Below are positions 2,835 through 27,328 of a DNA stretch of 42,997 nucleotides, piece after piece. Numbering within the stretch: the first letter of the stretch is position 1; the number at the start of each line of letters is the position of its first letter. Source of the stretch: a virus. Lineage: Duplodnaviria; Heunggongvirae; Uroviricota; Caudoviricetes. The notes beneath the pieces were generated by a model. That model did not search any database, had not been told where the DNA came from, and saw nothing but the letters and a program-made list of their open reading frames with translations. The translations under genes were made by a program, and so were the position numbers. The stretch lies in IMG/VR virus record IMGVR_UViG_2563366800_000007; one strand, written 5' to 3'.

Positions 2835-5800
2835 TTATGCCTGAGTACGCAGCGCTTCAAGGCGGCGCAGGTCGAAGTCGTTCAGTTCGTCGGTGTAGTC
2901 AGCAGTGATTGGCGCTGGCCATTCACCTGTGTCGAATCCGGTTGCGATATTGCGCATCGCTTTGCGGTACTCGAGCATACCCAGCTCCAGTAGTTCAGCG
3001 GATGCCTCGATGATGGCGATCCAGTGGTAGTTCTCGTCTTTGTTGACGAAAATCCAGAAGAACTGATCCAGCGCTGCGGTTTCGCAGTACATAGCCGCGC
3101 TCAGGTGATAATCACGTTCAATAATTTCCCGGTGTAGCCTGGCGCGCAGGCTTTCCTGCTTAACATTCCACATGCTGATGGTTTTCAGGTCTGCACCTAT
3201 ACGCACGCCATCCAGGTCGATCTCAAGGTCAGGGCGCACACGAACTTCCAAGCCCGTCTCCTCGTCAAAACCAAAGTAGCTCACCTCAACGGCTCGGCTA
3301 GGGTGGGTCAGCAGCATGCCGGCGGTCGGGTGTGCCAGAAGCGCTTTTTGAATATTCAGCGCGGTGCTCAGCTGCTGGCGGGTGACCAGCACTTTTCCTT
3401 CCGGGTTATCGCGCCAGGCATCCAGCAGTTCGTCGGCAAATACGGCATCTGGTTTGACTGCCTTCACGGCCTGGATCATGTCTGCTTTGGTACCGGACAC
3501 TTTCAGTGGTGCCGGTTTCTGTGCTTCCTGAGCCACAAGGTCAGGGTTGATGATTGCCAACTGCTCCAGCAGCGCGTCACGGCTGCCGCTGGTTTTAACC
3601 GGCGGCGGCAGGGTGGCGTTGTACTCTTTAATGCATGCCTTCATTGCCGTCGCCGTCTGCTTCTGGTCACCATCAATACGCTGGAAGTCAGCTGGCAGCG
3701 CCATATAGTTCTGTGCCGTTTCTTCCAGGTTAGCGCCAAGCGGAACCTGCGGCGGCAGGGTGGCGTTGTACTCTTCCAGTAACACCTTGATGTCGTCGGC
3801 AGATAGCAGCGCCGGCAGGCTGGCATTGTGCTCATCGATAAAGGCGCGCAGGGTCGCGGCCGTTGTGAATGCGCCTTCAGGGATCACCGGTTCAACGCTG
3901 AATTCTGCGTCCAGTAGTTCAGGCTGCAACGCCAGCGCATGCACCAAGTTGCCCATGTCCAGCACCGCTGAGCGCTCTTTGACGATGGTTTTCTCTACGT
4001 GGCGCGCATTGAAGTACATCAGCGAAACGCGCGCATCTTTCACCTGGGTTGAGCTGATGCCGTTGGCGGCGTGGTAAACCTCGTTTGGCAGCCCTTCATA
4101 GCGGCCTGGCTCGAAATAAGCGGGATAAACAACAGCTGGTTCGTCAGATTGCGCTTCTGGCTCGGTTTGTGCTGCAACTGGTTCGGTTTGGCTTACAGAA
4201 TCGCTATTTTTGGCGACAGAATCCGTATTCTGGTTTACATCGTCCTTCTGGCTGGTATCTGACTCTTCACCAGACTCCAGACTGCTTTCGCCTGGCTGTA
4301 CTTCATCACCAACATTTTTTTCATCACTGACAGTTTCTTCCATCTGCACATTGCTGGTGGTTTCCTCATTAAGTGGTGAACGGTTATCTGTTTGTGTTTG
4401 TTGATCGCCCATCAGGCCATCAATGGAGAATACGCCGTTGCCCATGTTGGCGATTTGTGGCTGTTTAGCAGCTGTTTTCTGCTCTGCAGCGACCTGCTCA
4501 TTAACCTCATTTTCCCAGCTGACGTCCGGCGCATGACCAGCATCAGCCAGCGTTTCTTCTGAGGGGTTTGAGTGGTCATTTTCGGTTAGATTGGCGTTGA
4601 TATATGCCCGCAACCGCCCAGGAAAGTTAACCAATTCTGATGATGTGCCGCGGATGAGTGCAAAGATGGCGGCGCGTGAATAGTCCAGGATGCCAGCGGT
4701 TTTGCGCAGCGCCTCAGACCATTCGCTGAACGGACTTTCTTTCTTGCTGACAATCTCTTTAGCGCGACGGTAGACCCCACCAGGTATGTCGTAGATATTG
4801 AAATCCATTGGCAAGGTGGCCAGCGCAATTTCAACATCCAAAGTGTCCAGTGTGTGGACATAGTCGGTATTACGATCGGTCTTATTTCCACCGCCAGCAT
4901 TGGTTTTGACGTCAGTACGTTGAATCTGCGCAACGCGGTTACCTTTCTGCCATTCCTTGACCAGCAGGCCACGGTCGATGTAATTAGTGTTGAACCACAC
5001 AGTCAGGAACTGGATAACTGTTGCCAGCTCCGGTTTTTTACCGTCGACAGGGAAGACTTTCTTAACAGCATTCACGACTTTATGAATATCGTGCTCAATG
5101 GCTTTTTTGAATGCTTCCACATTCTCAGCAGCCAGCAGCAGGTTCTGGATGTACGTGTCATCAGTGTCCATCTCAAGGCGGACAATCTCGTTTTTCTGCC
5201 CAGCGTCGATGTGATAGAGATATTCACCATCACCGATGAACTGAGCCAGTACGCGCTGACGGAATGGCAGGGTGGCTACGACGATCAGGTTCGGCTGATC
5301 TGGCTGCTGAGATTGTTCTTCGGTACCGACTTCATCACCAACGCTGGTGGTTTCAGTTTTGAGCAGAGGAAACCTGCCACTGCGCCAGTCTTCAACCAGT
5401 TGATTGCGATCACCTGATTCTGCGTTCACCCAGTCAGACATGAAAGCAGCGATCACTTCAGGTCCATGCTCTTCACCCTGTTCGAAGATGTCTTTAATCG
5501 CCTGAATCATTTTCCACTCAGCATTAAGACTGAGTTCGCCAACTTCAGGAACATCATTTTTAACCTGCAGCAAGTTCTGGAGATAGGTATTGCTTTCGTC
5601 CAGTGACATTTCGCTGGCAGCCAGCTGCTGCTCTTTAGTGACGTGAGTCTGGTACTTATCGCTCATCAGATGGAAGGCAAAACGGACTGCTGGAGTGCGG
5701 TTTTCTAACGATACATTCTCGTCAGAAGTCGCTACTTCATCTGTATTTTTTACATCGGCAGGGATAGTGGTGACAACGTCGCCAGCGGCCTTTGGCAGCC

Positions 5801-6170
5801 AGGTGCGCCCGTCGTCCTGCAGTTCGTAACGATCACACCAGGTGAAATCAACTTCACCTTCTTCCGGCAGGTCGTCATATATCGGGAAATCGGTGCGGAT
5901 TGGTTTGGCATAATCTTTACCGCGGCCAGTTTCTTCAATTCCGGCTTCTTCCAGTGCCACATCGAGTTGGAGATTGGCGCGCGCTACACTTTTCGCAGTG
6001 AACCAAATCACGGCATCTTTCTTGCCAGACTTCTGACTGGCTTTTATCAGATGGAAAAATTCCATGTGAGATCCTCTTTTTTGAGTGTTAGAATCCCCGG
6101 GCCAGAGATAGCGCCCATTGGATGTTTTTTGGTTTGGTATAAATTCCGGTGTAACTTTGGTCGGTGGCAC
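2835..6170 (-). CDS. recE: RecE-like exodeoxyribonuclease VIII (long N-terminal region plus C-terminal PD-(D/E)xK nuclease domain)
   Basis: 1111-aa ORF; C-terminal RPDLEIDLDGVRIGADLKT fits a PD-(D/E)xK active site; partner of RecT; internal repeated EYNATLPP motif. Confidence 0.7.
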   Translation of the reverse strand: MPPTKVTPEFIPNQKTSNGRYLWPGDSNTQKRGSHMEFFHLIKASQKSGKKDAVIWFTAKSVARANLQLDVALEEAGIEETGRGKDYAKPIRTDFPIYDDLPEEGEVDFTWCDRYELQDDGRTWLPKAAGDVVTTIPADVKNTDEVATSDENVSLENRTPAVRFAFHLMSDKYQTHVTKEQQLAASEMSLDESNTYLQNLLQVKNDVPEVGELSLNAEWKMIQAIKDIFEQGEEHGPEVIAAFMSDWVNAESGDRNQLVEDWRSGRFPLLKTETTSVGDEVGTEEQSQQPDQPNLIVVATLPFRQRVLAQFIGDGEYLYHIDAGQKNEIVRLEMDTDDTYIQNLLLAAENVEAFKKAIEHDIHKVVNAVKKVFPVDGKKPELATVIQFLTVWFNTNYIDRGLLVKEWQKGNRVAQIQRTDVKTNAGGGNKTDRNTDYVHTLDTLDVEIALATLPMDFNIYDIPGGVYRRAKEIVSKKESPFSEWSEALRKTAGILDYSRAAIFALIRGTSSELVNFPGRLRAYINANLTENDHSNPSEETLADAGHAPDVSWENEVNEQVAAEQKTAAKQPQIANMGNGVFSIDGLMGDQQTQTDNRSPLNEETTSNVQMEETVSDEKNVGDEVQPGESSLESGEESDTSQKDDVNQNTDSVAKNSDSVSQTEPVAAQTEPEAQSDEPAVVYPAYFEPGRYEGLPNEVYHAANGISSTQVKDARVSLMYFNARHVEKTIVKERSAVLDMGNLVHALALQPELLDAEFSVEPVIPEGAFTTAATLRAFIDEHNASLPALLSADDIKVLLEEYNATLPPQVPLGANLEETAQNYMALPADFQRIDGDQKQTATAMKACIKEYNATLPPPVKTSGSRDALLEQLAIINPDLVAQEAQKPAPLKVSGTKADMIQAVKAVKPDAVFADELLDAWRDNPEGKVLVTRQQLSTALNIQKALLAHPTAGMLLTHPSRAVEVSYFGFDEETGLEVRVRPDLEIDLDGVRIGADLKTISMWNVKQESLRARLHREIIERDYHLSAAMYCETAALDQFFWIFVNKDENYHWIAIIEASAELLELGMLEYRKAMRNIATGFDTGEWPAPITADYTDELNDFDLRRLEALRTQA

Positions 6171-16306: not shown

Positions 16307-17206
16307 ATGCCAAATTGGATAGACGTGTTGGGCGAGATGGGTACTATTGCTCAACGTACACCAGCGGATGAGGTTCGCCACAAGTACTTACGAGAGTTGT
16401 CGAAGCATACAGGCCGAAACGTAATTTCATATTACTCAGGCTTCCTCCAGAAGGGGGGGCCTGGGTTGCAGCATTTAATACAAATGTCAGATGACGATAA
16501 AAATGGTCTTATGTCAGCCATTAACGGCTTAGACACGTCATTAGGGCTGGATATCTTGCTTCATACCCCAGGGGGAGATATTGCAGCATTGGAATCTATT
16601 GGTCATTATCTTCGTTCAAAATTTGGGACCAATATCCGGGCAATTGTTCCTATGATCTCAATGAGTTGTGGGACCATGTTGGCTTGCTGTGCCGAACAGA
16701 TTGTATTGGGCAAACAGTCAAATTTGGGGCCAATTGATCCGCAGCTTGGTGGTTTATCATCTCATGCGATCATAGAAGAGTATGAGCGAGCTAAGAAAGA
16801 GATTTCTGAAAATGCTGCAGCGATCCAATGGTGGCAATTTACTCTTCAAAAGCTAAACCCGACTCTCATTGGTGAATGTGAAAAGGCTATTGTTTGGGCT
16901 AATGAAATAGTACAAAAATGGCTGTGTACTGGTATGTTTGCAGGTCATGCTAACGCTCAAGATAAGGCTAAGCGAATTTGTGATGAGCTAAACAATCATC
17001 ATACAACCTATGCGCATGCTAGACATATTCATCTGGATAAAGCGCAAAGCATTGGTTTGAACATTATGGAGCTGGAGAGCGACCAAACTCTGCAGGATCT
17101 TGTGCTGACTATACATCATTGCTACATGCATTCATTTGGTACGAGTCCTGCTGCGAAAATTATTGAAAATCATAATGGCAGCACGATGATGTGGAATATT
17201 CGCTAA
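16307..17206 (+). CDS. ClpP/crotonase-fold serine peptidase (SDH / S49-like family)
   Basis: 299 aa; LLHTPGGDIAALES resembles the ClpP/SppA oxyanion-hole motif and IVPMISMSCGTMLACCAEQIVLG the nucleophile-serine block; AT-rich; starts 12 bp after the small ORF and ends at a strong terminator. Confidence 0.7.
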   Translation: MPNWIDVLGEMGTIAQRTPADEVRHKYLRELSKHTGRNVISYYSGFLQKGGPGLQHLIQMSDDDKNGLMSAINGLDTSLGLDILLHTPGGDIAALESIGHYLRSKFGTNIRAIVPMISMSCGTMLACCAEQIVLGKQSNLGPIDPQLGGLSSHAIIEEYERAKKEISENAAAIQWWQFTLQKLNPTLIGECEKAIVWANEIVQKWLCTGMFAGHANAQDKAKRICDELNNHHTTYAHARHIHLDKAQSIGLNIMELESDQTLQDLVLTIHHCYMHSFGTSPAAKIIENHNGSTMMWNIR

Positions 17207-19582: not shown

Positions 19583-19825
19583 ATGTCACAATCAGCGCTT
19601 GCTACTGAATTAGAACTCACTGACGATGAGTTGGATTCCATACCTCTATCACCTGAAGACCTTGAGGAGAATACAGGGCATTCAGGCGATATGGTATATG
19701 AGTACTATTTCTATGTTCCCGATACTACCCCTGAAGATATTCTTAGCAAGAAAGGATGGGAAATAGGTGAGTGTGTTTACTTATCTATTAATGTTTTTGA
19801 TGACCCGGATTCGGAGCAAGAATAG
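19583..19825 (+). CDS. Strongly acidic 80-aa protein (monocistronic moron)
   Basis: AGGAGG Shine-Dalgarno 5 nt upstream of the ATG; about 22 Asp/Glu against 2 Lys by hand count; bracketed by terminators. Track ORF begins at 19556. Confidence 0.45.
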   Translation: MSQSALATELELTDDELDSIPLSPEDLEENTGHSGDMVYEYYFYVPDTTPEDILSKKGWEIGECVYLSINVFDDPDSEQE

Positions 19826-19842
19826 AACGATAAGCATAATGC

Positions 19843-19864
19843 ACCGCCTCCGGGCGGTTTTTTT
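19843..19864 (+). terminator. Rho-independent terminator
   Basis: Stem accgcc / ggcggt with a tccg loop, followed by TTTTTTT. Confidence 0.7.
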
Positions 19865-19886
19865 ATGTCAGTACACTGGAGCGTTT

Positions 19887-20525
19887 ATGGCAACACTCAA
19901 AGACCTTTCTCAGCAATTAAAGAAGGTACAAAAGCAGGTGCCATATGCTACAGCACTAGCTATGACAAAAGTTGTTCGTCAAATAGAAACGGCACAGAAA
20001 ACAGCGTTCGAACGACATCTGGAGAGCCCGACACCGTTTACCGTTAAATCAGTTGGTTCGGTGGCGGCAAGGAAGAACAACCTGACTGCAAAGGTTTTTG
20101 TCCGCGATACCGCGGCTGGTTATCTGGAACCATTCGAGTTAGGTGGAGAGCATAAGCTCAATAGCCAAGCGCTATTGAACCCCAAGAACGTCAAGCTAAA
20201 CAAATACGGCAACATGCCGCGTAATAAGCTCTCACAGCTTAAAGCAAAGGAAAATGTATTCGTAGGTGAGGTTGATGGCGTTAACGCTGTCTGGCAGCGT
20301 AAGAAGCCGATGAAAGCTAAGAAGCGACGGGCCAAACGTTCCGCTAACGGGACGCGAAGACCGAAACGCAAACAGCGTTCTCCAAAGCTTTTGATCCGGT
20401 TTGGTGATGCGCTACCTGTGACTCCAGTGCTGGGGTATATGGATAGGGCCCGTACCATGGCGAACGCACTGCTACCGTCTGCTTTAAATCAGGCGATAGC
20501 AGAAGCCATCAGGACGGCAAAATAA
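19887..20525 (+). CDS. Hypothetical 212-aa protein with a Lys/Arg-rich segment
   Basis: Internal ATG at 19887 with GGAG upstream; contains KKPMKAKKRRAKRSANGTRRPKRKQRSPK, suggesting nucleic-acid binding; no family recognised. Track ORF begins at 19767. Confidence 0.45.
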   Translation: MATLKDLSQQLKKVQKQVPYATALAMTKVVRQIETAQKTAFERHLESPTPFTVKSVGSVAARKNNLTAKVFVRDTAAGYLEPFELGGEHKLNSQALLNPKNVKLNKYGNMPRNKLSQLKAKENVFVGEVDGVNAVWQRKKPMKAKKRRAKRSANGTRRPKRKQRSPKLLIRFGDALPVTPVLGYMDRARTMANALLPSALNQAIAEAIRTAK

Positions 20526-20535
20526 AAGCAGTAAC

Positions 20536-21039
20536 TTATAAGTTAATTTCGCAAGCTTTTATGAAGCTGTTTACTGCAGTTGTCGATCCAGAAACATTGG
20601 CTGACATGGAATGCTGGTTTCCGCCATCCTTTGTTTGCACACCAACTAACACTTTGGATTTCGCCCCCTGAAGCTGCTTAAGCACTGTTTTTAGTTGGTC
20701 CGCGTCATCCGATTGAATCTGGAGGCTCTGAACATTACGTCTTGAAAGGGTAGCATCGAGCTTCACTGCGGTATTCCCGTCGACCTTCATTATCAGGTCC
20801 ATTGGTACCTCTGATAGTGATTCGGTGCTTTTATCCATTTCAACGTATGCCGCCGATAGCTTTTCTTTAGTGCAGTCAAACACAATGGCGCCATTGTCGG
20901 ATGAAACCTCGCCAAGCATCATTGCTTTCTTACCACCAGAGAAAAGGTCATCTTCAGTATTAGTTACCCACTGGGCATGAGCAATTGGTGATGCCAGCAC
21001 TGCGGCTACGAAAGTTATTTTGATTATATTGTTACCCAT
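20536..21039 (-). CDS. Secreted or periplasmic protein of unknown function
   Basis: ATG at 21039 preceded by AAGGAGAA; N-terminal signal peptide MGNNIIKITFVAAVLASPIAHA then QW; two Cys in the mature part; transcribed opposite to the late genes, next to cos. Confidence 0.5.
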   Translation of the reverse strand: MGNNIIKITFVAAVLASPIAHAQWVTNTEDDLFSGGKKAMMLGEVSSDNGAIVFDCTKEKLSAAYVEMDKSTESLSEVPMDLIMKVDGNTAVKLDATLSRRNVQSLQIQSDDADQLKTVLKQLQGAKSKVLVGVQTKDGGNQHSMSANVSGSTTAVNSFIKACEINL

Positions 21040-21130
21040 TACATTCTCCTTGTATTGAATAGGAATAATCATAGTCGGAGCGAATGGTCGAAGCCAATAA
21101 AAAAATGGGTCCTTCCTGAGACTTTTGTAA

Positions 21131-21160
21131 GGTACGGGCATTGCGCGCCGCGGTGTTTTC
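21131..21160. other. cosN-like GC-rich segment (candidate cohesive-end site)
   Basis: tacgggcattgcgcgccgcggtgttttcc resembles the lambda cos region (tacggggcggcgacctcgcgggttttcgc) in layout; about 170 bp upstream of the terminase small-subunit gene. Confidence 0.4.
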
Positions 21161-21183
21161 CTAGCTACAACTTTCAGATTTGT

Positions 21184-21330
21184 GTCCCATGTCCCACCTC
21201 TGGCGATCATTACGGACACCTCGCCAGCTCTGGCTATTCCAGTTTATTCCAGTGGGACATTCTGGTGGGACATGGCAAAAATGTCCCAGGCGAATGTCCC
21301 ACCCCAGAAAATGTCCCAGGTGATGTCCCA
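21184..21330. repeat. Eight copies of GTCCCA / TGGGAC (candidate terminase small-subunit binding sites, cosB-like)
   Basis: Hexamers at about 21184, 21191, 21283, 21296, 21313, 21325 (forward) and 21253, 21266 (reverse), mostly as ATGTCCCA with 12 to 17-bp spacing, ending at the terS start codon. Confidence 0.5.
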
Positions 21331-21899
21331 TGACCACGATGAACCAGAGTCAGTACGCACAACATTCAGGTGTGGATCGCAAAACAATTGGTCGGTGGAT
21401 TAAAGCCGGGCGCTTCATTGTGATGGACGGAGACCTGATTGACGTAGAGGCCAGCGATGCGGCATTGAAGAAAAACCGCGATGGCAAAGACCCGCGCGCC
21501 TCGAACGCGAAGAAAAAGAAAACTCCCGTCGTTAGCGATAACGATGATGACGGTGATGAAATCAATAAAACTGTCCGCCAGATAATGCTCACTGAAGGGG
21601 CAGATCTTTCGAGAGAGGAAGCGGGACGTATCCGCGAGAATTACATGGCCCTGCAGGCAAAGCTGCAGTATGAAAAAGACAGCGGCCAGCTTATTGAGCT
21701 GACAGCAGCCGAGGAGGTTTTATTCAACGCCTTTCGCCAACAGCGTGATGCCTGGCTTAACTGGCCGTCCAGGGTGGCGCCGCTAATGGCTGCTGATCTG
21801 GATGTACCGGCGGACAGGATGACAGAGGTGCTGATTGAACATGTCCACAAACACATCTCAGTCCTCGGAGAGCCAGAGTTTAACCCGGCAGAAGATTGA
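21330..21899 (+). CDS. Terminase small subunit (lambda Nu1-like)
   Basis: N-terminal HTH (QYAQHSGVDRKTIGRWIKAG) as in Nu1; immediately upstream of and overlapping the large-subunit gene; preceded by the repeat array. Confidence 0.75.
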   Translation: MTTMNQSQYAQHSGVDRKTIGRWIKAGRFIVMDGDLIDVEASDAALKKNRDGKDPRASNAKKKKTPVVSDNDDDGDEINKTVRQIMLTEGADLSREEAGRIRENYMALQAKLQYEKDSGQLIELTAAEEVLFNAFRQQRDAWLNWPSRVAPLMAADLDVPADRMTEVLIEHVHKHISVLGEPEFNPAED

Positions 21900-23964
21900 G
21901 CGTCTTGAATTAAGCGTCCGCAAAGGCTGGACACCCCCGCCGCGTATCAGTGTGCCGCAGTGGGCAGATGACTATCGTAAGCTGGCAAAAGAGGCTGGGA
22001 GCACTTCGGGAAACTGGGAAACATCGACGGTAGAAATTGCCCGCGGACCGATGCTTGCCGCGACGGAGTCCGGGGTTCATATCATCACTGTAATGTGCTG
22101 TACCCAGTTGATGAAGACAGCACTGCTGGAAAACCTTTTTGGCTATTTTGCCCACCTCGATCCTTGTCCGATACTGCTGCTGCAGCCGAAAGAAGAAGCC
22201 GCTGAACAGTTTTCGAAAGAGCGTATTAGCCCGCTGGTAAGGGTGACGCCGGTACTGCGTAAAATCATCGGTGATTCGAAACAGAAAAGCTCGAAAGAAA
22301 CCATTCTTTACAAGGCGTTCACTGGCGGATTTCTGGCGCTGGCGGGTGCTGGTAGCCCTGATAACCTTGCGCGTCGTCCGATTCGTGTCCTGCTGGCGGA
22401 TGAAGTGGACAAGTACCCGATAACCCGCGAAGGCGATCCAATTGCGCTGGCCGAAGAGCGTACAGCGACATTTGGCCTGACCTGGCTGTCTGTACGCGCC
22501 TGTTCGCCGACGGTGGAGGATGAGAGCCGCATTGCTGACAGCTACGCCGACTCCGATCAGCGCCGGGCATCTGTGGTTTGCCCGCACTGTGGCCACCGCC
22601 AGTTCCCCGACTTTTTCAAACACGTTCAGTGGCCGAAAGAGGGAGATAAACACCTGACTAAATCGGCGATGCTCTATTGCGAATGCTGTGGTAGTGGCTG
22701 GTCCGAAGGACAGCGCCTCAGAGCTCTGCAAACTATTCGATGGCATCAGACGCGCCCATTTGAGTGCTGCGGGGAGCGGCACTCACCGCTGATGGATTAT
22801 GACCTTGCCTGGCGGGCGGCAGACGAGGGCAGCGTTGAAAAGGTCTGGCAATGGTCAGAGTCGGAACGGCATGCGGTCTATCGCGCAATCTGCCCCTCCT
22901 GTGGAAAGGAGGCAGTCGATAACCACCACGCGGGGTACCAGGCATCCAAGCTTTTCAGCCCCTGGCAAAAAGATAAGCCGTCGGATATTGCGAAAAAATA
23001 TATCGATGCGAAGGGCGATCCGGATAAGGAACAGGCGTGGTGGAATACCCAGATGGGGCTTCCGCACCGACCTAATCATGGGAAACAGCTCCCTGTTGAT
23101 GTTCTGCTGGCGCGCCGGGAAATATTTCCGGCCGTCGTTCCGGACGGGGTGGCATTGTTAACAGCTGGAGTTGATACCCAGGACGATCGCTTCGAAATTA
23201 CGATCACCGGCTGGGGGAGAGATGAAGAATCGTGGTCGGTCGCGCATGACGTTATTTATGGTGACCTTGAGACGGAAGAACCCTGGAAGCGACTGGATGC
23301 ATACCTGAAACAGATCTGGCGACGTGGTGACGGGCGCGGCCTGAATATCATGGCAACGTGCATGGACTCCGGTGGCCACCATACGCAGAAGGTATACGAA
23401 TTCGCCAAAGAGCGTCTTGGCCGTCGTGTCTGGGCAATTAAGGGGGAGTCTGCACAGGGAGGTAAACGCAATCCTGTCTGGCCGACCAAACGACCATCAT
23501 CGAAAAGCAAAGCCAGTTTCCGCCCTGTCATTCTGGGGGTTAACTCAGCGAAAGACGTGATACGCGGTCGCCTGCATCTTGAGCCACCCAAACCTGGCGC
23601 CGCCGCTGCGGGTTATATGCATTTTCCTGACGATCGCGATCTCGGGTACTTCAATCAGCTGCTGGCGGAGCGACTGGTTTACAAAGTCATTTCCGGGCAG
23701 CGGTACAGTATCTGGGAAGCAATACCAGGACGAGCTAACGAAGCGCTTGACTGCCTCGTTTACAGCTATGCCGCGCTGTGCGGTCTCAAACATATGGGGT
23801 TAAAACTCAACGTCCGGGCCGCCAACCTCGAAGCCGATCCGGATAAGTTCCTGCCAGCGCCAGTTGGACAGGAAGAAAAAATCAATTACGAGCTGCCGGG
23901 TGCGGTTATTGAAGAACCAGCGCCGGTCAAACGTAAGCGAATATCGCAACTCCTGCCGAAATAA
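21835..23964 (+). CDS. Terminase large subunit (lambda gpA family)
   Basis: 709 aa; Cys-rich region CPHCGHRQF...CECCGSGW, ATPase and nuclease blocks and a C-terminal ANEALDCLVYSYAAL motif parallel lambda gpA; start overlaps the 3-prime end of terS. Confidence 0.9.
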   Translation: MNMSTNTSQSSESQSLTRQKIERLELSVRKGWTPPPRISVPQWADDYRKLAKEAGSTSGNWETSTVEIARGPMLAATESGVHIITVMCCTQLMKTALLENLFGYFAHLDPCPILLLQPKEEAAEQFSKERISPLVRVTPVLRKIIGDSKQKSSKETILYKAFTGGFLALAGAGSPDNLARRPIRVLLADEVDKYPITREGDPIALAEERTATFGLTWLSVRACSPTVEDESRIADSYADSDQRRASVVCPHCGHRQFPDFFKHVQWPKEGDKHLTKSAMLYCECCGSGWSEGQRLRALQTIRWHQTRPFECCGERHSPLMDYDLAWRAADEGSVEKVWQWSESERHAVYRAICPSCGKEAVDNHHAGYQASKLFSPWQKDKPSDIAKKYIDAKGDPDKEQAWWNTQMGLPHRPNHGKQLPVDVLLARREIFPAVVPDGVALLTAGVDTQDDRFEITITGWGRDEESWSVAHDVIYGDLETEEPWKRLDAYLKQIWRRGDGRGLNIMATCMDSGGHHTQKVYEFAKERLGRRVWAIKGESAQGGKRNPVWPTKRPSSKSKASFRPVILGVNSAKDVIRGRLHLEPPKPGAAAAGYMHFPDDRDLGYFNQLLAERLVYKVISGQRYSIWEAIPGRANEALDCLVYSYAALCGLKHMGLKLNVRAANLEADPDKFLPAPVGQEEKINYELPGAVIEEPAPVKRKRISQLLPK

Positions 23965-23972
23965 GGAAAATC

Positions 23973-24236
23973 ATGTTCAACCGGAACACCAGCCTGCTTG
24001 CCGGCGCAATGACTGACGATCAGCTCAGGGATGCGCTTGCGAAAGCTCAGCAGGCGTACATTGATTTAGCAACCGGGAGCCACGGTGTTTCGTTTTCCTA
24101 TACGCAGGGAGACGGGACGCGATCAGTGTCCTATCAGCAAAGCACCCTGGCTGATCTGCTGGCCCTGATTCAACTTCTGCAGGCGCAACTGGGGATTATC
24201 TCTCGTCCCCGGAAACCAGCGAGGTTTAGATTCTGA
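23973..24236 (+). CDS. Head-tail joining protein (lambda gpW-like)
   Basis: 87 aa; pattern ...AYIDLATGSHGVSFSY...SVSYQQSTLADL...RPRKPARFRF parallels lambda W; sits between terminase and portal. Confidence 0.6.
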   Translation: MFNRNTSLLAGAMTDDQLRDALAKAQQAYIDLATGSHGVSFSYTQGDGTRSVSYQQSTLADLLALIQLLQAQLGIISRPRKPARFRF

Positions 24237-25873
24237 TGAATAAAGTACAGATACTGGGCTCTGATGGGCAGCCGTTGCGACAGCAGCGTCCCTCTATGCT
24301 GGTGGGGGGGAGCCGCGTACCTTATGACGCAGCTGACTCTTTCAGCGATCAACTGGCGAACTGGCAACCCGCGCTGTGGTCCCCGGACAATGAAATTAAC
24401 ATTTACCGGGATCGCATCGTGTCCCGCGCACGCGATCTGGTCCGTAATGACGGCTGGGCAAACGGTGCGGTCACACGTCTGCTGGATAATGCGGTTGGTG
24501 CCAACTTCCGCCCCATCATGAAACCCGATTACCGTGTTCTCAGAATGATCACCGGAAACAAGGCGTTTGATGCGTCCTGGGCGGAAGAGTACGGAAAAGC
24601 ACTGGACGGGCACTGGCGGACCTGGAGTAACGATCCTGGCCGGTATTGTGATGTTGAACGAAAACTCACCGTGTCGCAGATGTTACGCCTGGGATTTCGT
24701 CACAAGCTTATTGACGGGGATGCTCTGGCCATTCTCCAGTACAGAACTGACAGGCTTGGTCCCGGAAGAGGGCGTTACGCCACCACGGTACAGATTGTCG
24801 ATCCTGACCGCCTCAGTAATCCTCAGCAGAATTTCGATATGCCAAATGTCCGTGGTGGCGTTGAAATTGATGCGGACGGTGCGCCGGTTGCTTACCACAT
24901 CAGGGAGGCCCATATCGGTGACTGGTGGAGCGGGGCTAAAACCATGACGTGGCAGCGTATCCCGCGTGAAACTGACTGGGGCCGCCCGCATGTGGTTCAC
25001 GATTTTGATCATGAGCGTGGCGCGCAGCACCGTGGTAACGGCATCCTGACTCCGGTTATTCAGCGTCTGAAAATGCTGGTGAAGTATGACCAGAGTGAGC
25101 TTGAGGCAGCAATTCTTAATGCCATATTTGCCGCTTACATTGAGTCACCCTATGACCCTGCGATGGTTCAGTCTGCCCTGGGCGAGACCTATGACGAGTC
25201 GGAGTTAGGCACTTATCAGGACGGGCGTGTTGAGTTCCATAACGATCGGCGTCTGACACTTCAGAATGGTGCCCGAATGCCCATTCTTTATCCTGGTGAG
25301 AAAATCACGACGGTTAACGCGGCGCGGCCCTACAGCAATTTTGAAGTCTTCGAATCTGCTGTTCTCCGTAATTTTTCTTCAGGAACAGGGTTGTCCCCAC
25401 AGCAGGTCACCCAGGACTGGTCTGACGTTAACTACAGTTCTGCACGCTCCTCGTTGCTGGAGGCATGGAAAACACTGACTCGCCGCCGGGACGATTTTTC
25501 TACCGGCTTCGCTCAGCCCATTCTCACCGCCTTTGTTGAAGAAGTTCACGACAATGAGGATTTACCCCTGCCCGCAGGCGCACCTGATTTTGTTGACGCC
25601 AGAGCCGCGTATTCTCGCGCGCGCTGGATGGGGCCAGGGCGCGGCTGGGTGGATCCGGTTGCAGAGAAAAAAGGCGCCATTCTTGGTCTGGATGCCGGAC
25701 TTTCCACCCTCGAGATTGAGGTGGGTGAAAACGTCGGTGAAGACTGGGAAGAAGTGCTTGATCAGCGCCAGAGAGAAATTGAGTCATGTCTTAAACGCGG
25801 ATTACCGCTTCCGAGCTGGGCACAGGCTGACCAGTTTGCGAGCCAGACCATTACCGATCCGGAGGAAAAGTGA
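24236..25873 (+). CDS. Portal protein (lambda gpB family)
   Basis: 545-aa ORF between the gpW-like and prohead-protease genes; ATGA overlap with the upstream gene; assignment by size, order and general similarity. Confidence 0.8.
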   Translation: MNKVQILGSDGQPLRQQRPSMLVGGSRVPYDAADSFSDQLANWQPALWSPDNEINIYRDRIVSRARDLVRNDGWANGAVTRLLDNAVGANFRPIMKPDYRVLRMITGNKAFDASWAEEYGKALDGHWRTWSNDPGRYCDVERKLTVSQMLRLGFRHKLIDGDALAILQYRTDRLGPGRGRYATTVQIVDPDRLSNPQQNFDMPNVRGGVEIDADGAPVAYHIREAHIGDWWSGAKTMTWQRIPRETDWGRPHVVHDFDHERGAQHRGNGILTPVIQRLKMLVKYDQSELEAAILNAIFAAYIESPYDPAMVQSALGETYDESELGTYQDGRVEFHNDRRLTLQNGARMPILYPGEKITTVNAARPYSNFEVFESAVLRNFSSGTGLSPQQVTQDWSDVNYSSARSSLLEAWKTLTRRRDDFSTGFAQPILTAFVEEVHDNEDLPLPAGAPDFVDARAAYSRARWMGPGRGWVDPVAEKKGAILGLDAGLSTLEIEVGENVGEDWEEVLDQRQREIESCLKRGLPLPSWAQADQFASQTITDPEEK

Positions 25874-26736
25874 ATCTACCCCATCTGGCCCAGCGATTAT
25901 TTAACACCCCGCTGGCGCTGCACCCGAGTAAAGCCGAAGTCATCATGGCATCCGTAATGGACCGATTTGGTATCAGTAAAATCGAATCTTCTCTTGCCAT
26001 GGAGGATGACTGGTACGGATATGACGATAACCGGGGACGTGAATCCCGTAGTGATCCGGGTTATGACAATGTGCTGGGTGTCGCCGTCATCCCGATATGC
26101 GGAACGCTGGTGCAAAAACTGGGCAGTCTGCGTCCGTACAGTGGAATGACAGGGTATGACGGCATTCGTCAGGCGTTTCTTACTGCGATGGAAGATCCCG
26201 ACATTTCGGGCATTTGCCTGGATATCGACTCACCCGGCGGCGAGGTCGCTGGATGCTTCGATCTGGTTGATGTCATTTACGGCTCCCGGGGGAAAAAGCC
26301 TATCCATGCCATTCTGACGGAAAGCGCTTATTCCGCTGCGTATGCCATTGCCAGTGCAGCGGACCGGATTTCTGTTCCGCGCACCGGCGGAGTGGGTTCT
26401 GTGGGTGTGATCACCATGCACCTTGACTGGACGCAGCGGATTAAAGATGACGGTCTTAAAGTTACGATCATCACCTATGGATCCCGCAAGGCTGAAGGTT
26501 CGCCGCTGAGAGAGTTGTCAGATGAAGCTCTGGCCGCCATCCAGCAGGACATTAACACCATGGGCGAATTGTTTGTGAACACTGTTGCCAGAAACCGGGG
26601 GATTAGCGCAAAGGTTATAAAAAGTACCCAGGCCGCCTGTTTTATGGCTGCTGATGGCGTTGAAATTGGACTGGCTGATGAGGTGTGTCCTCCTGACGCT
26701 GCGTTCAAAAACTTACTTGAAAAAACAGGAGCCTGA
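25870..26736 (+). CDS. Prohead maturation protease (S49 / ClpP-fold, lambda gpC-like)
   Basis: Blocks ICLDIDSPGGEVAG and ILTESAYSAAYAIASAADRI are characteristic of S49 head proteases; GTG start overlaps the portal stop. Confidence 0.8.
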   Translation: MNLPHLAQRLFNTPLALHPSKAEVIMASVMDRFGISKIESSLAMEDDWYGYDDNRGRESRSDPGYDNVLGVAVIPICGTLVQKLGSLRPYSGMTGYDGIRQAFLTAMEDPDISGICLDIDSPGGEVAGCFDLVDVIYGSRGKKPIHAILTESAYSAAYAIASAADRISVPRTGGVGSVGVITMHLDWTQRIKDDGLKVTIITYGSRKAEGSPLRELSDEALAAIQQDINTMGELFVNTVARNRGISAKVIKSTQAACFMAADGVEIGLADEVCPPDAAFKNLLEKTGA

Positions 26737-26737
26737 A

Positions 26738-27328
26738 ATGGCAAAGAAAAAGACGTTTAGTTTTGCTCACCTCATTGGTCTTGGCCCTTCCGCTTCTGAG
26801 GAAGAAGAGGATAAAAAAGCCAAAAAAGCGAAAGCCCGTCGCGCGGAAGAGGACGAGCGCGAAGATGATGCCGATGATGATGAGCGCGACGACGACGCGG
26901 AAGAAGACGAACGCGACGATGATGCTGAAGATGACGGCGATGATCCGGATGCGTCAGAAGATGATGATTCTGAAGACGACGGCGACGACGATCGCAAAGA
27001 GAGTAAGGCGGTAAAAAATGCACGCGCTGCTGAGCGTAAACGCTGCGCCCGTATTTTCGGCAGTAAGCATGCAGCTGCGAATCCTTCACTGGCCGCGTCA
27101 CTGGCTTTCAATACCGGGATGAGTTCTGCGGCAGCAATTAATGTCCTAGCCTCTTCGGCTCCGGCCGCAGCCGCATCTCAGCCATCCCGTAAACGCTCTC
27201 TCGATCAGCGTATGCAGGAAAGCCACCAGGTCCGGCTTAATCCGGATAGCGGACAGAAAGAGACCGGAAAGTCTGCGCTGGTAAGTAAAATGACCGGCCT
27301 CTACAACTCCACAAGAGGAGAGAAATAA
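26738..27328 (+). CDS. Scaffold-like acidic protein (Nu3 position) with low-complexity Asp/Glu repeats
   Basis: 196-aa product from the ATG at 26738 (AGGAG upstream); about 26795..26995 encodes EDDERDDDAEEDERDDDAEDDGDD-type repeats from tandem DNA repeats; Ala-rich C-terminus. Track ORF begins at 26654. Confidence 0.45.
   Translation: MAKKKTFSFAHLIGLGPSASEEEEDKKAKKAKARRAEEDEREDDADDDERDDDAEEDERDDDAEDDGDDPDASEDDDSEDDGDDDRKESKAVKNARAAERKRCARIFGSKHAAANPSLAASLAFNTGMSSAAAINVLASSAPAAAASQPSRKRSLDQRMQESHQVRLNPDSGQKETGKSALVSKMTGLYNSTRGEK

Follow-up and report, generated by a model that had tools for sequence, protein, structure and literature searches.

The closest described systems are the cohesive-end (cos) sites of phages lambda, 21 and N15, and that of Serratia phage vB_SspM_BZS1 (hereafter BZS1). 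In lambda, CG dinucleotides flank both nicks, the cosB segment has the order R3-I1-R2-R1, in which R2 points the other way from R3 and R1, and cosQ, a highly conserved 7-bp element, is required for termination (PMC4669245); the distance from cosN to R3 is critical (PMC9026076). Among the lambda, 21 and N15 classes, cosQ and cosN are shared and cosB changes together with the helix-turn-helix of the small terminase subunit (TerS), ‘simple’ and ‘complex’ forms of cosB exist within one specificity, and natural hybrids carry a foreign cosB and terS 5′-end joined to a conserved TerS C-terminus (PMC4669245). For BZS1, virion reads analysed with PhageTerm showed 5′ cohesive ends whose overhang is GCATTGCGCGCC, and phage-end sequencing compared with PCR across the prophage junction confirmed one 12-bp cos; the paper gives this 12-bp cos and does not describe repeats (PMC7556043).

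Here we describe the corresponding region of a 42,997-nt stretch of viral DNA (‘the window’), apparently an intact temperate prophage whose head and packaging module is lambda-like and whose tail is contractile, of the myovirus type. Its positions 21107–21330 very probably form a complete lambda-type cohesive-end site (cosQ-cosN-cosB), whose array of TGTCCCA words would be read by TerS. The initial annotation had already placed a cos packaging site at the terminase genes (21131–21332), and this reading is strengthened by a 12-mer identical to the mapped cohesive end of BZS1, homology to cosQ-cosN of lambda, a cosB-like layout, covariation of the repeated word with a TerS domain, and the GpA-family large terminase (TerL), gpW and portal genes downstream. 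The comparison with related cos phages that it had suggested points the same way: BZS1 and Citrobacter phage phiNP share cosQ and the 12-mer, and about 100 related loci keep cosQ/cosN. One part of the site, the heptamer GGGTCCT, lies outside the interval first annotated. The features are, in order:

21107–21113, + strand: cosQ-like heptamer GGGTCCT, 31–25 nt upstream of the predicted top-strand nick
21138–21149, + strand: cosN, predicted 12-nt 5′ cohesive end GCATTGCGCGCC, assigned by identity with the BZS1 virion cohesive end
21150–21181, + strand: conserved spacer GCGGTGTTTTCCTAGCTACAACTTTCAGATTT between cosN and the first repeats, in the place of the lambda cosN right flank and I2
21182–21196, + strand: tandem pair GTGTCCCA/ATGTCCCA with 7-bp spacing, at +45 to +59, the R3 position
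21197–21252, no strand: 56-nt spacer from the tandem pair to the inverted pair, in the place of lambda I1
21253–21260 and 21266–21273, − strand: two inverted copies TGGGACAT, R2-like position
21281–21330, + strand: four direct copies of ATGTCCCA in two 30-bp units, R1-like position, the last adjoining the terS ATG
21330–21899, + strand: terS, small terminase, 189 aa (PHROG 57 ‘terminase small subunit’, E 4.6e-36)
21841–23964, + strand: terL, GpA-family large terminase, ATPase and endonuclease (PF05876 2.2e-64; PF20454 2.1e-78)

The proposed cosQ-cosN core and its setting

The heptamer GGGTCCT is presumably cosQ of lambda, and is reportedly given as such by Wieczorek and Feiss in 2001. When the lambda ends (from J02459) were joined and aligned with the window at the nick, this heptamer fell at −30 to −24 in lambda and at −31 to −25 in the window, and in both sequences the nick is preceded by TACGG and followed by CG(C)GGTGTTTTC:

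Lambda, joined ends: ACGGGTCCTTTCC...GGTTACG / GGGCGGCGACCT / CGCGGGTTTTCGCTAT
Window, same alignment: ATGGGTCCTTCCT...AGGTACGG / GCATTGCGCGCC / GCGGTGTTTTCCTAGCTAC

Both flanks of the nick-aligned segment tacgggcattgcgcgccgcggtgttttcc, present at 21133–21161, match the joined lambda ends, and the cosN flanks TACGG and CGCGGTGTTTTC are homologous to those of lambda. The earlier description of a GC-rich, cosN-like core resembling the lambda cohesive-end region is borne out by these flanks and by the 12-mer that equals the BZS1 cohesive end. The overhangs themselves differ (GGGCGGCGACCT in lambda, GCATTGCGCGCC in the window), although both are 12-nt and 5′, that of the window being predicted. 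The top strand is predicted to be nicked before 21138 and the bottom strand after 21149, each with an uncertainty of ±1 nt: alignment on the conserved CG flanks of lambda gives instead GGCATTGCGCGC at 21137–21148, 1 nt further left, and we kept 21138–21149 because the BZS1-based assignment is experimental. In the spacer that follows cosN (21150–21181), AGCTA and its flanking bases are conserved across specificity classes and resemble lambda CGCGGGTTTTCGCTATTTATGAAAATTTT; a − strand match to the IHF consensus, with one mismatch, lies there at +31.

A megablast search of 20900–22100 against 50,697 phage records gave no match, and sensitive blastn and tblastn searches brought up phiNP and BZS1, the only two phages matched by the sensitive DNA search. 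The BZS1 match starts at the first base of a linear record that bears the annotation ‘cosL; left cohesive end’; the left end runs GCATTGCGCGCC GCGTTCTGCGTCTAGCTATCAAC... (also read as GCATTGCGCGCCGCG...AGCTA...) and the right end ...AAATGGGTCCTTCCCTGCACTTTTGTAAAGCACGG (also read as ...GGGTCCTTCC...AGCACGG). Its 12-mer equals window 21138–21149 and has the same sequence context on its flanks, and a literature search for GCATTGCGCGCC returned the BZS1 paper as its sole result. Both phages are of the same genome type as the window, with lambda-like head genes and a contractile tail, and have an identical cosQ, an identical 12-nt cohesive end and a homologous cosN-proximal spacer. They differ in carrying GGTAACA words and another TerS N-domain, in a TerS C-domain only about 26% identical to that of the window, and in a short cosB, where three direct copies take up 65 nt (the window has eight over about 180 nt); the mapped relative BZS1 is thus a member of the GGTAACA class with a three-copy cosB, not of the TGTCCCA class. 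Between the TerL proteins of the window and BZS1, the nuclease core (residues 431–650) is 79% identical and the ATPase domain 41%, a pattern that fits the identical cosN cutting site.

The array occupies part of a 290-nt gap between a reverse-strand gene (20536–21039) and the 189-codon open reading frame starting at 21330. The terL gene begins within the 3′ end of terS and encodes a protein with 29% identity to lambda gpA (E 2e-60); gpW and a lambda-family portal follow, so that the order terS, GpA-family TerL, gpW, lambda-family portal is common to the window and lambda. Genes for a major capsid protein of the E type and for a tail sheath lie further on. Upstream lie an integrase (1–1194), RecE/RecT-like genes (RecT, 1711–2829, − strand; a RecE/exonuclease VIII-like protein, 2835–6170, − strand, unusually long at 1110 aa), a gene for a repressor-like HTH protein, one for an O-like replication protein, and lysis genes, with a ClpP-like SDH-type serine protease gene (16307–17206) just 5′ of the lysis cassette. 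Enterobacterales genomes commonly encode homologues of TerS, nearly always annotated ‘hypothetical protein’.

Two further genes border the site. The last + strand late gene before cos (19767–20525) matches PHROG 1924 ‘minor tail protein’ (E 2e-60, match from residue 41) and corresponds to the BZS1 hypothetical protein p72; this is an odd place for a tail gene, and translation probably begins at the ATG near 19887. Between it and cosQ lies the reverse-strand gene at 20536–21039, which encodes a 167-aa product with a signal peptide (phrog_19473; no match in Pfam, NCBIfam or PADLOC, the last of which gave none on the neighbouring small genes either), lies 70 nt upstream of cosQ and is shared only with two of the related loci collected below (L001 and L002). 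In other relatives (L003–L005, L009, L010, L013) the last + strand late gene runs right up to cosQ, and for that reason the reverse-strand gene looks like an inserted moron. A scan of 20400–21500 for promoters and terminators found one − strand promoter-like site (21097–21068), at chance frequency, and no terminator; this site, that of the reverse-strand gene, adjoins cosQ.

A repeat array in the position of cosB

The hexamer GTCCCA occurs 17 times in the window (19.3 ± 4.6 in shuffles), a total at chance level, and eight of the 17 occurrences lie inside 147 nt (21184–21330), where about 0.07 would be expected; the signal is therefore one of clustering and not of abundance. All seven exact ATGTCCCA octamers of the window fall within 21189–21330, the eighth repeat copy is GTGTCCCA at 21182–21189, and the array as a whole (21182–21330) stands directly 5′ of the small-terminase gene. 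These counts agree with the initial annotation, which had reported eight GTCCCA/TGGGAC elements in both orientations within about 150 bp, mostly in one longer form: six copies are direct and two inverted, and seven of the eight have the exact octamer. The copies run ++ (21182, 21189), −− (21253, 21266) and ++++ (21281, 21294, 21311, 21323). The 12- to 17-bp spacing given at that time applies to the last six (13, about 15–17, 13, 17 and 12 bp) but not to the first two, which form a 7-bp tandem pair some 63 bp from copy 3. Copies 3–6 make up a 22-nt imperfect dyad and copies 5–8 two 30-bp direct units, and the last copy overlaps the terS start codon, as had been noted, ending on the A of the ATG at 21330.

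With coordinates counted from the nick, the repeats lie between cosN and terS, the middle ones inverted (++/−−/++++), at the R3, R2 and R1 positions of lambda:

R3 position: window +46 and +53, direct; lambda R3 core +53
R2 position: window +116 and +129, inverted; lambda inverted R2 +114
R1 position: window +145, +158, +175 and +187, direct; lambda R1 +155
Small-terminase ATG: window terS +193; lambda Nu1 +191

The word itself is another matter. The repeat motif had been called unlike the lambda R sites, and rightly, the recognition word being a 7- to 8-bp TGTCCCA here and an R sequence of about 16 bp, CGTTTCC(K)TTCT, in lambda; the window moreover has two to four copies per R position, eight altogether, against three sites in lambda. 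An N15-style extra inverted site inside terS was also sought, and no TGTCCCA-like octamer with up to one mismatch occurs in 21331–27140.

A second difference concerns the spacer between the R3-like and R2-like copies (21197–21252), where no match to the IHF consensus WATCARNNNNTTR with up to one mismatch was found; a consensus scan is a weak test, and the same scan recovers lambda I1 at one mismatch. Without an IHF consensus between these copies, the bending model of lambda is not simply transferable. The spacer does contain a 7-bp inverted repeat, CTGGCGA-N14-TCGCCAG (21200–21227), and two copies of TATTCCAGT (21235 and 21245), and is poorly conserved among relatives; it may bind another factor or act as a bendable element. 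Relatives L007–L011 have a different palindrome, GTGCATA-TT-TATGCAC, at the place of this inverted repeat.

TerS domains and their words

The initial annotation had called the small terminase Nu1-like, a label that stands at the level of fold and of a weak N-terminal profile alignment and not at that of the Pfam family. At E ≤ 0.01, TerS matched nothing in Pfam or NCBIfam, Phage_Nu1 (PF07471) included; hhalign against lambda Nu1 aligned residues 4–61 only, at 28% identity (E 0.005, probability 7%), and a sequence search of the PDB gave no match. An AlphaFold model built from a 16-sequence alignment, for which all Foldseek matches had E > 1, divides the protein as follows:

Residues 1–50: strand-helix-helix-wing-helix, confident, pLDDT about 82
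Residues 52–75: disordered K/D-rich linker
Residues 75–178: helices

The N-terminus is thus predicted to be a winged helix-turn-helix, with Nu1-family domains as its best structural matches, and to judge from the model TerS would work like Nu1, with a Nu1 fold, outside the Pfam family as now drawn. Across natural hybrids, conservation of the last 97 residues does not depend on the N-domain, as would be expected of a TerL-binding module. Small MerR-like winged-helix proteins of the Xis/BldC type also bind direct-repeat arrays, but the likeness extends to fold and binding style only: they are regulators or recombination directionality factors without terminase domains, unlike TerS. Two in-frame ATGs are available to terS, M1 (21330) and M4 (21339), of which AGGTGA at 21318–21323 favours M1; homologues in the GGTAACA class begin at the equivalent of M4, and the final repeat copy runs into the Shine-Dalgarno or start-codon region in every class.

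Related loci were collected in two ways: 80 genome loci (L001–L080) were fetched via the conserved C-terminal part of TerS, a selection blind to the upstream DNA, and 120 viral loci (L081–L200) via an exact 17-mer that includes cosN. Because of this second choice, only the protein-selected L001–L080 speak to the conservation of cosN. In 36 distinct protein-selected loci GGGTCC is nearly invariant and cosN is conserved, and in such loci cosQ and the 12-mer are kept in Enterobacterales, Burkholderiales, Chromobacterium, Rhodanobacter/Dyella and Sphingomonas. Among L018–L080 (for example, L029, L032, L044 and L061), GGGTCC(T/C)...GCATTGCGCGCC stands upstream of TerS homologues in prophages of Burkholderiales, Chromobacterium, Rhodanobacter/Dyella and Sphingomonas, and the short word at the R3 position differs from one such cassette to the next and matches the TerS N-domain.

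In a set of 103 distinct cosN-to-terS regions, which 7-mer is over-represented goes strictly with the N-terminal sequence of TerS. Word, copy number, TerS N-terminal signature and number of distinct regions with at least three copies that fit are:

TGTCCCA: 5–9 copies; GV(D/N)RKT..RW; 51/51
GGTAACA: 3–8 copies (two more regions have 2); VSRKTVT.WK.RGW; 28/28
GCGAACA/GTTCGCA: 5–8 copies; CSDTLVRRAI; 5/5

Further pairs of word and domain occur in single lineages, with the words GGTTTCA, GTCCGCA, GGTTGY, TTTACAC and GTGTGAA. In the TGTCCCA and GGTAACA classes the copies have the same positions and orientations (46/53 direct, about 120/133 inverted, then direct copies to the ATG), so the two classes share one scaffold with a different word, and a tandem pair at the R3 position is found in the TGTCCCA, GGTAACA and GGTTTCA classes alike. 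Hybrids separate the two TerS domains: L149 and L106, with TGTCCCA arrays, are 71% and 56% identical to the window in the N-domain and 35% and 24% in the C-domain, whereas L013, L141 and L129, with GGTAACA arrays, are about 51% identical in the N-domain and 81–82% in the C-domain. By these sequence comparisons, the repeated word follows the N-domain of TerS, not its C-domain. As in lambda, 21 and N15, the lineage of the window keeps cosQ and cosN and swaps the cosB word with the TerS N-domain; unlike those phages, it forms a lineage of its own, in which six or more word/domain pairings, as predicted specificities, are spread over Alpha-, Beta- and Gammaproteobacteria.

Two sets of contigs deserve separate mention. 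Viral contigs L090, L128 and L173 have the same cosQ and cosN, followed about 50 nt downstream by a gene that the TerS profile does not match, with no visible repeats, and may stand for another family of small terminases, or for a satellite, that shares the cutting site. Metagenome contigs L211 (879 nt) and L212 (851 nt), which are independent of each other, encode a TerS with 90% identity. Both begin within about 3 nt of the right nick, one of them 2 nt short of the end of the 12-mer and the other 1 nt beyond it, which hints, and no more, at traces of virion left ends or at assembly breakpoints in a conserved cassette; as graph branching at a conserved cassette also produces ends, contig ends are an ambiguous proxy for virion ends, and the locus boundaries of viral contigs, which looked like storage chunks, were left out.

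The covariation bears on whether the array might be regulatory, that is, whether cosN is real and the repeats are operators for a transcription regulator of the head-gene operon or of terS. The last copies do overlap the terS Shine-Dalgarno/ATG region, the 22-nt dyad of copies 3–6 is operator-like, and covariation with the TerS N-domain could stem from linkage: the array adjoins the terS 5′-end, so that word and domain could in part travel together in recombination modules. Linkage is insufficient, however, because it does not account for a different word standing in place of every copy at preserved positions. Operators are improbable for other reasons as well: the word tracks the DNA-binding domain of TerS through independent domain swaps, the intergenic region has no + strand promoter-like site, the tandem pair lies at the cosN distance that is critical for lambda R3 (PMC9026076), and phages of the BZS1 type retain no more than three copies, packed tightly into the stretch from cosN to terS. 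TerS binding might bring autoregulation as a side-effect, which would be compatible with packaging as the main role of the array.

It is highly improbable that the locus is a decayed cos remnant, or that its repeats are neutral products of slippage or duplication without a binding function. The reverse-strand gene inserted 70 nt upstream of cosQ might be taken for decay, and nothing else specific speaks for it, but head, tail, lysis, replication and integration modules are all present as long open reading frames, the copies hold the same positions and orientations in two classes with different words, and motif columns are far better conserved than spacers (in the TGTCCCA class, 90% against 64% for cosB spacer columns; Mann-Whitney p = 7e-15, 63 distinct sequences). 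A pac-type site, at which TerS would bind the repeats and headful packaging would proceed from an imprecise first cut without defined cohesive ends, has a parallel in the pac phage SPP1 with its several TerS sites flanking the cut site (PMC4669245) and might suit an array of eight sites where lambda has three, but is barely credible given a TerL of the GpA family with a gpA endonuclease domain, a 12-mer that is a mapped 5′ cohesive end, a nuclease core so close to that of BZS1, and conservation of cosQ and cosN to the base across bacterial classes, as expected for precise cutting.

Proposed packaging at the site and its meaning for the lineage

On the cohesive-end reading, the N-terminal winged helix-turn-helix domains of TerS would bind the TGTCCCA words, and the array would serve as the equivalent of cosB, with the tandem pair as R3, the inverted pair as R2 and the four direct copies as R1. 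Bound TerS would anchor the GpA-family TerL, and the tandem pair, at the critical R3 distance, would place the nuclease on cosN, where staggered nicks by the TerL endonuclease would leave 12-nt 5′ overhangs GCATTGCGCGCC (21138–21149). Packaging would then run rightward, into terS and the head genes, and end at the next cos of the concatemer, with GGGTCCT upstream of cosN as the termination signal (cosQ). In this scheme we infer from lambda and BZS1 that the site is cut here, that TerS binds the repeats, that the heptamer signals termination and that packaging runs rightward.

It is conceivable, if doubtful, that the eight paired words organize a larger TerS-DNA assembly than that of lambda, independent of IHF, in which a pair of winged helices would sit at each R position and the 22-nt dyad and the two 30-bp units would wrap DNA round a TerS oligomer. 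If that were true, the lineage would be a natural library for the recognition code of winged helix-turn-helix domains and for the engineering of orthogonal packaging.

The kind of element described here is textbook and well understood, and the 12-bp cos of a relative is already published; the understanding of cos packaging is unchanged, and the value of the site lies in annotation. New features are the putative specificity for TGTCCCA, the arrangement of eight copies in pairs, a spacer that apparently has no IHF site, and the breadth of a cosQ-cosN cassette with swappable pairs of TerS domain and word. For a widespread and mostly unannotated group of Enterobacterales prophages, the site would set the genome ends, predicted to the base, and the direction of packaging. 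The comparative set could also be of help in designing orthogonal cos/terminase pairs for cosmid-like delivery. Different 7-bp words paired with TerS recognition helices on a constant cosQ-cosN extend the specificity story of lambda, 21 and N15: a single cosQ-cosN serves prophages of Alpha-, Beta- and Gammaproteobacteria, with at least six apparently interchangeable pairs of TerS domain and word.
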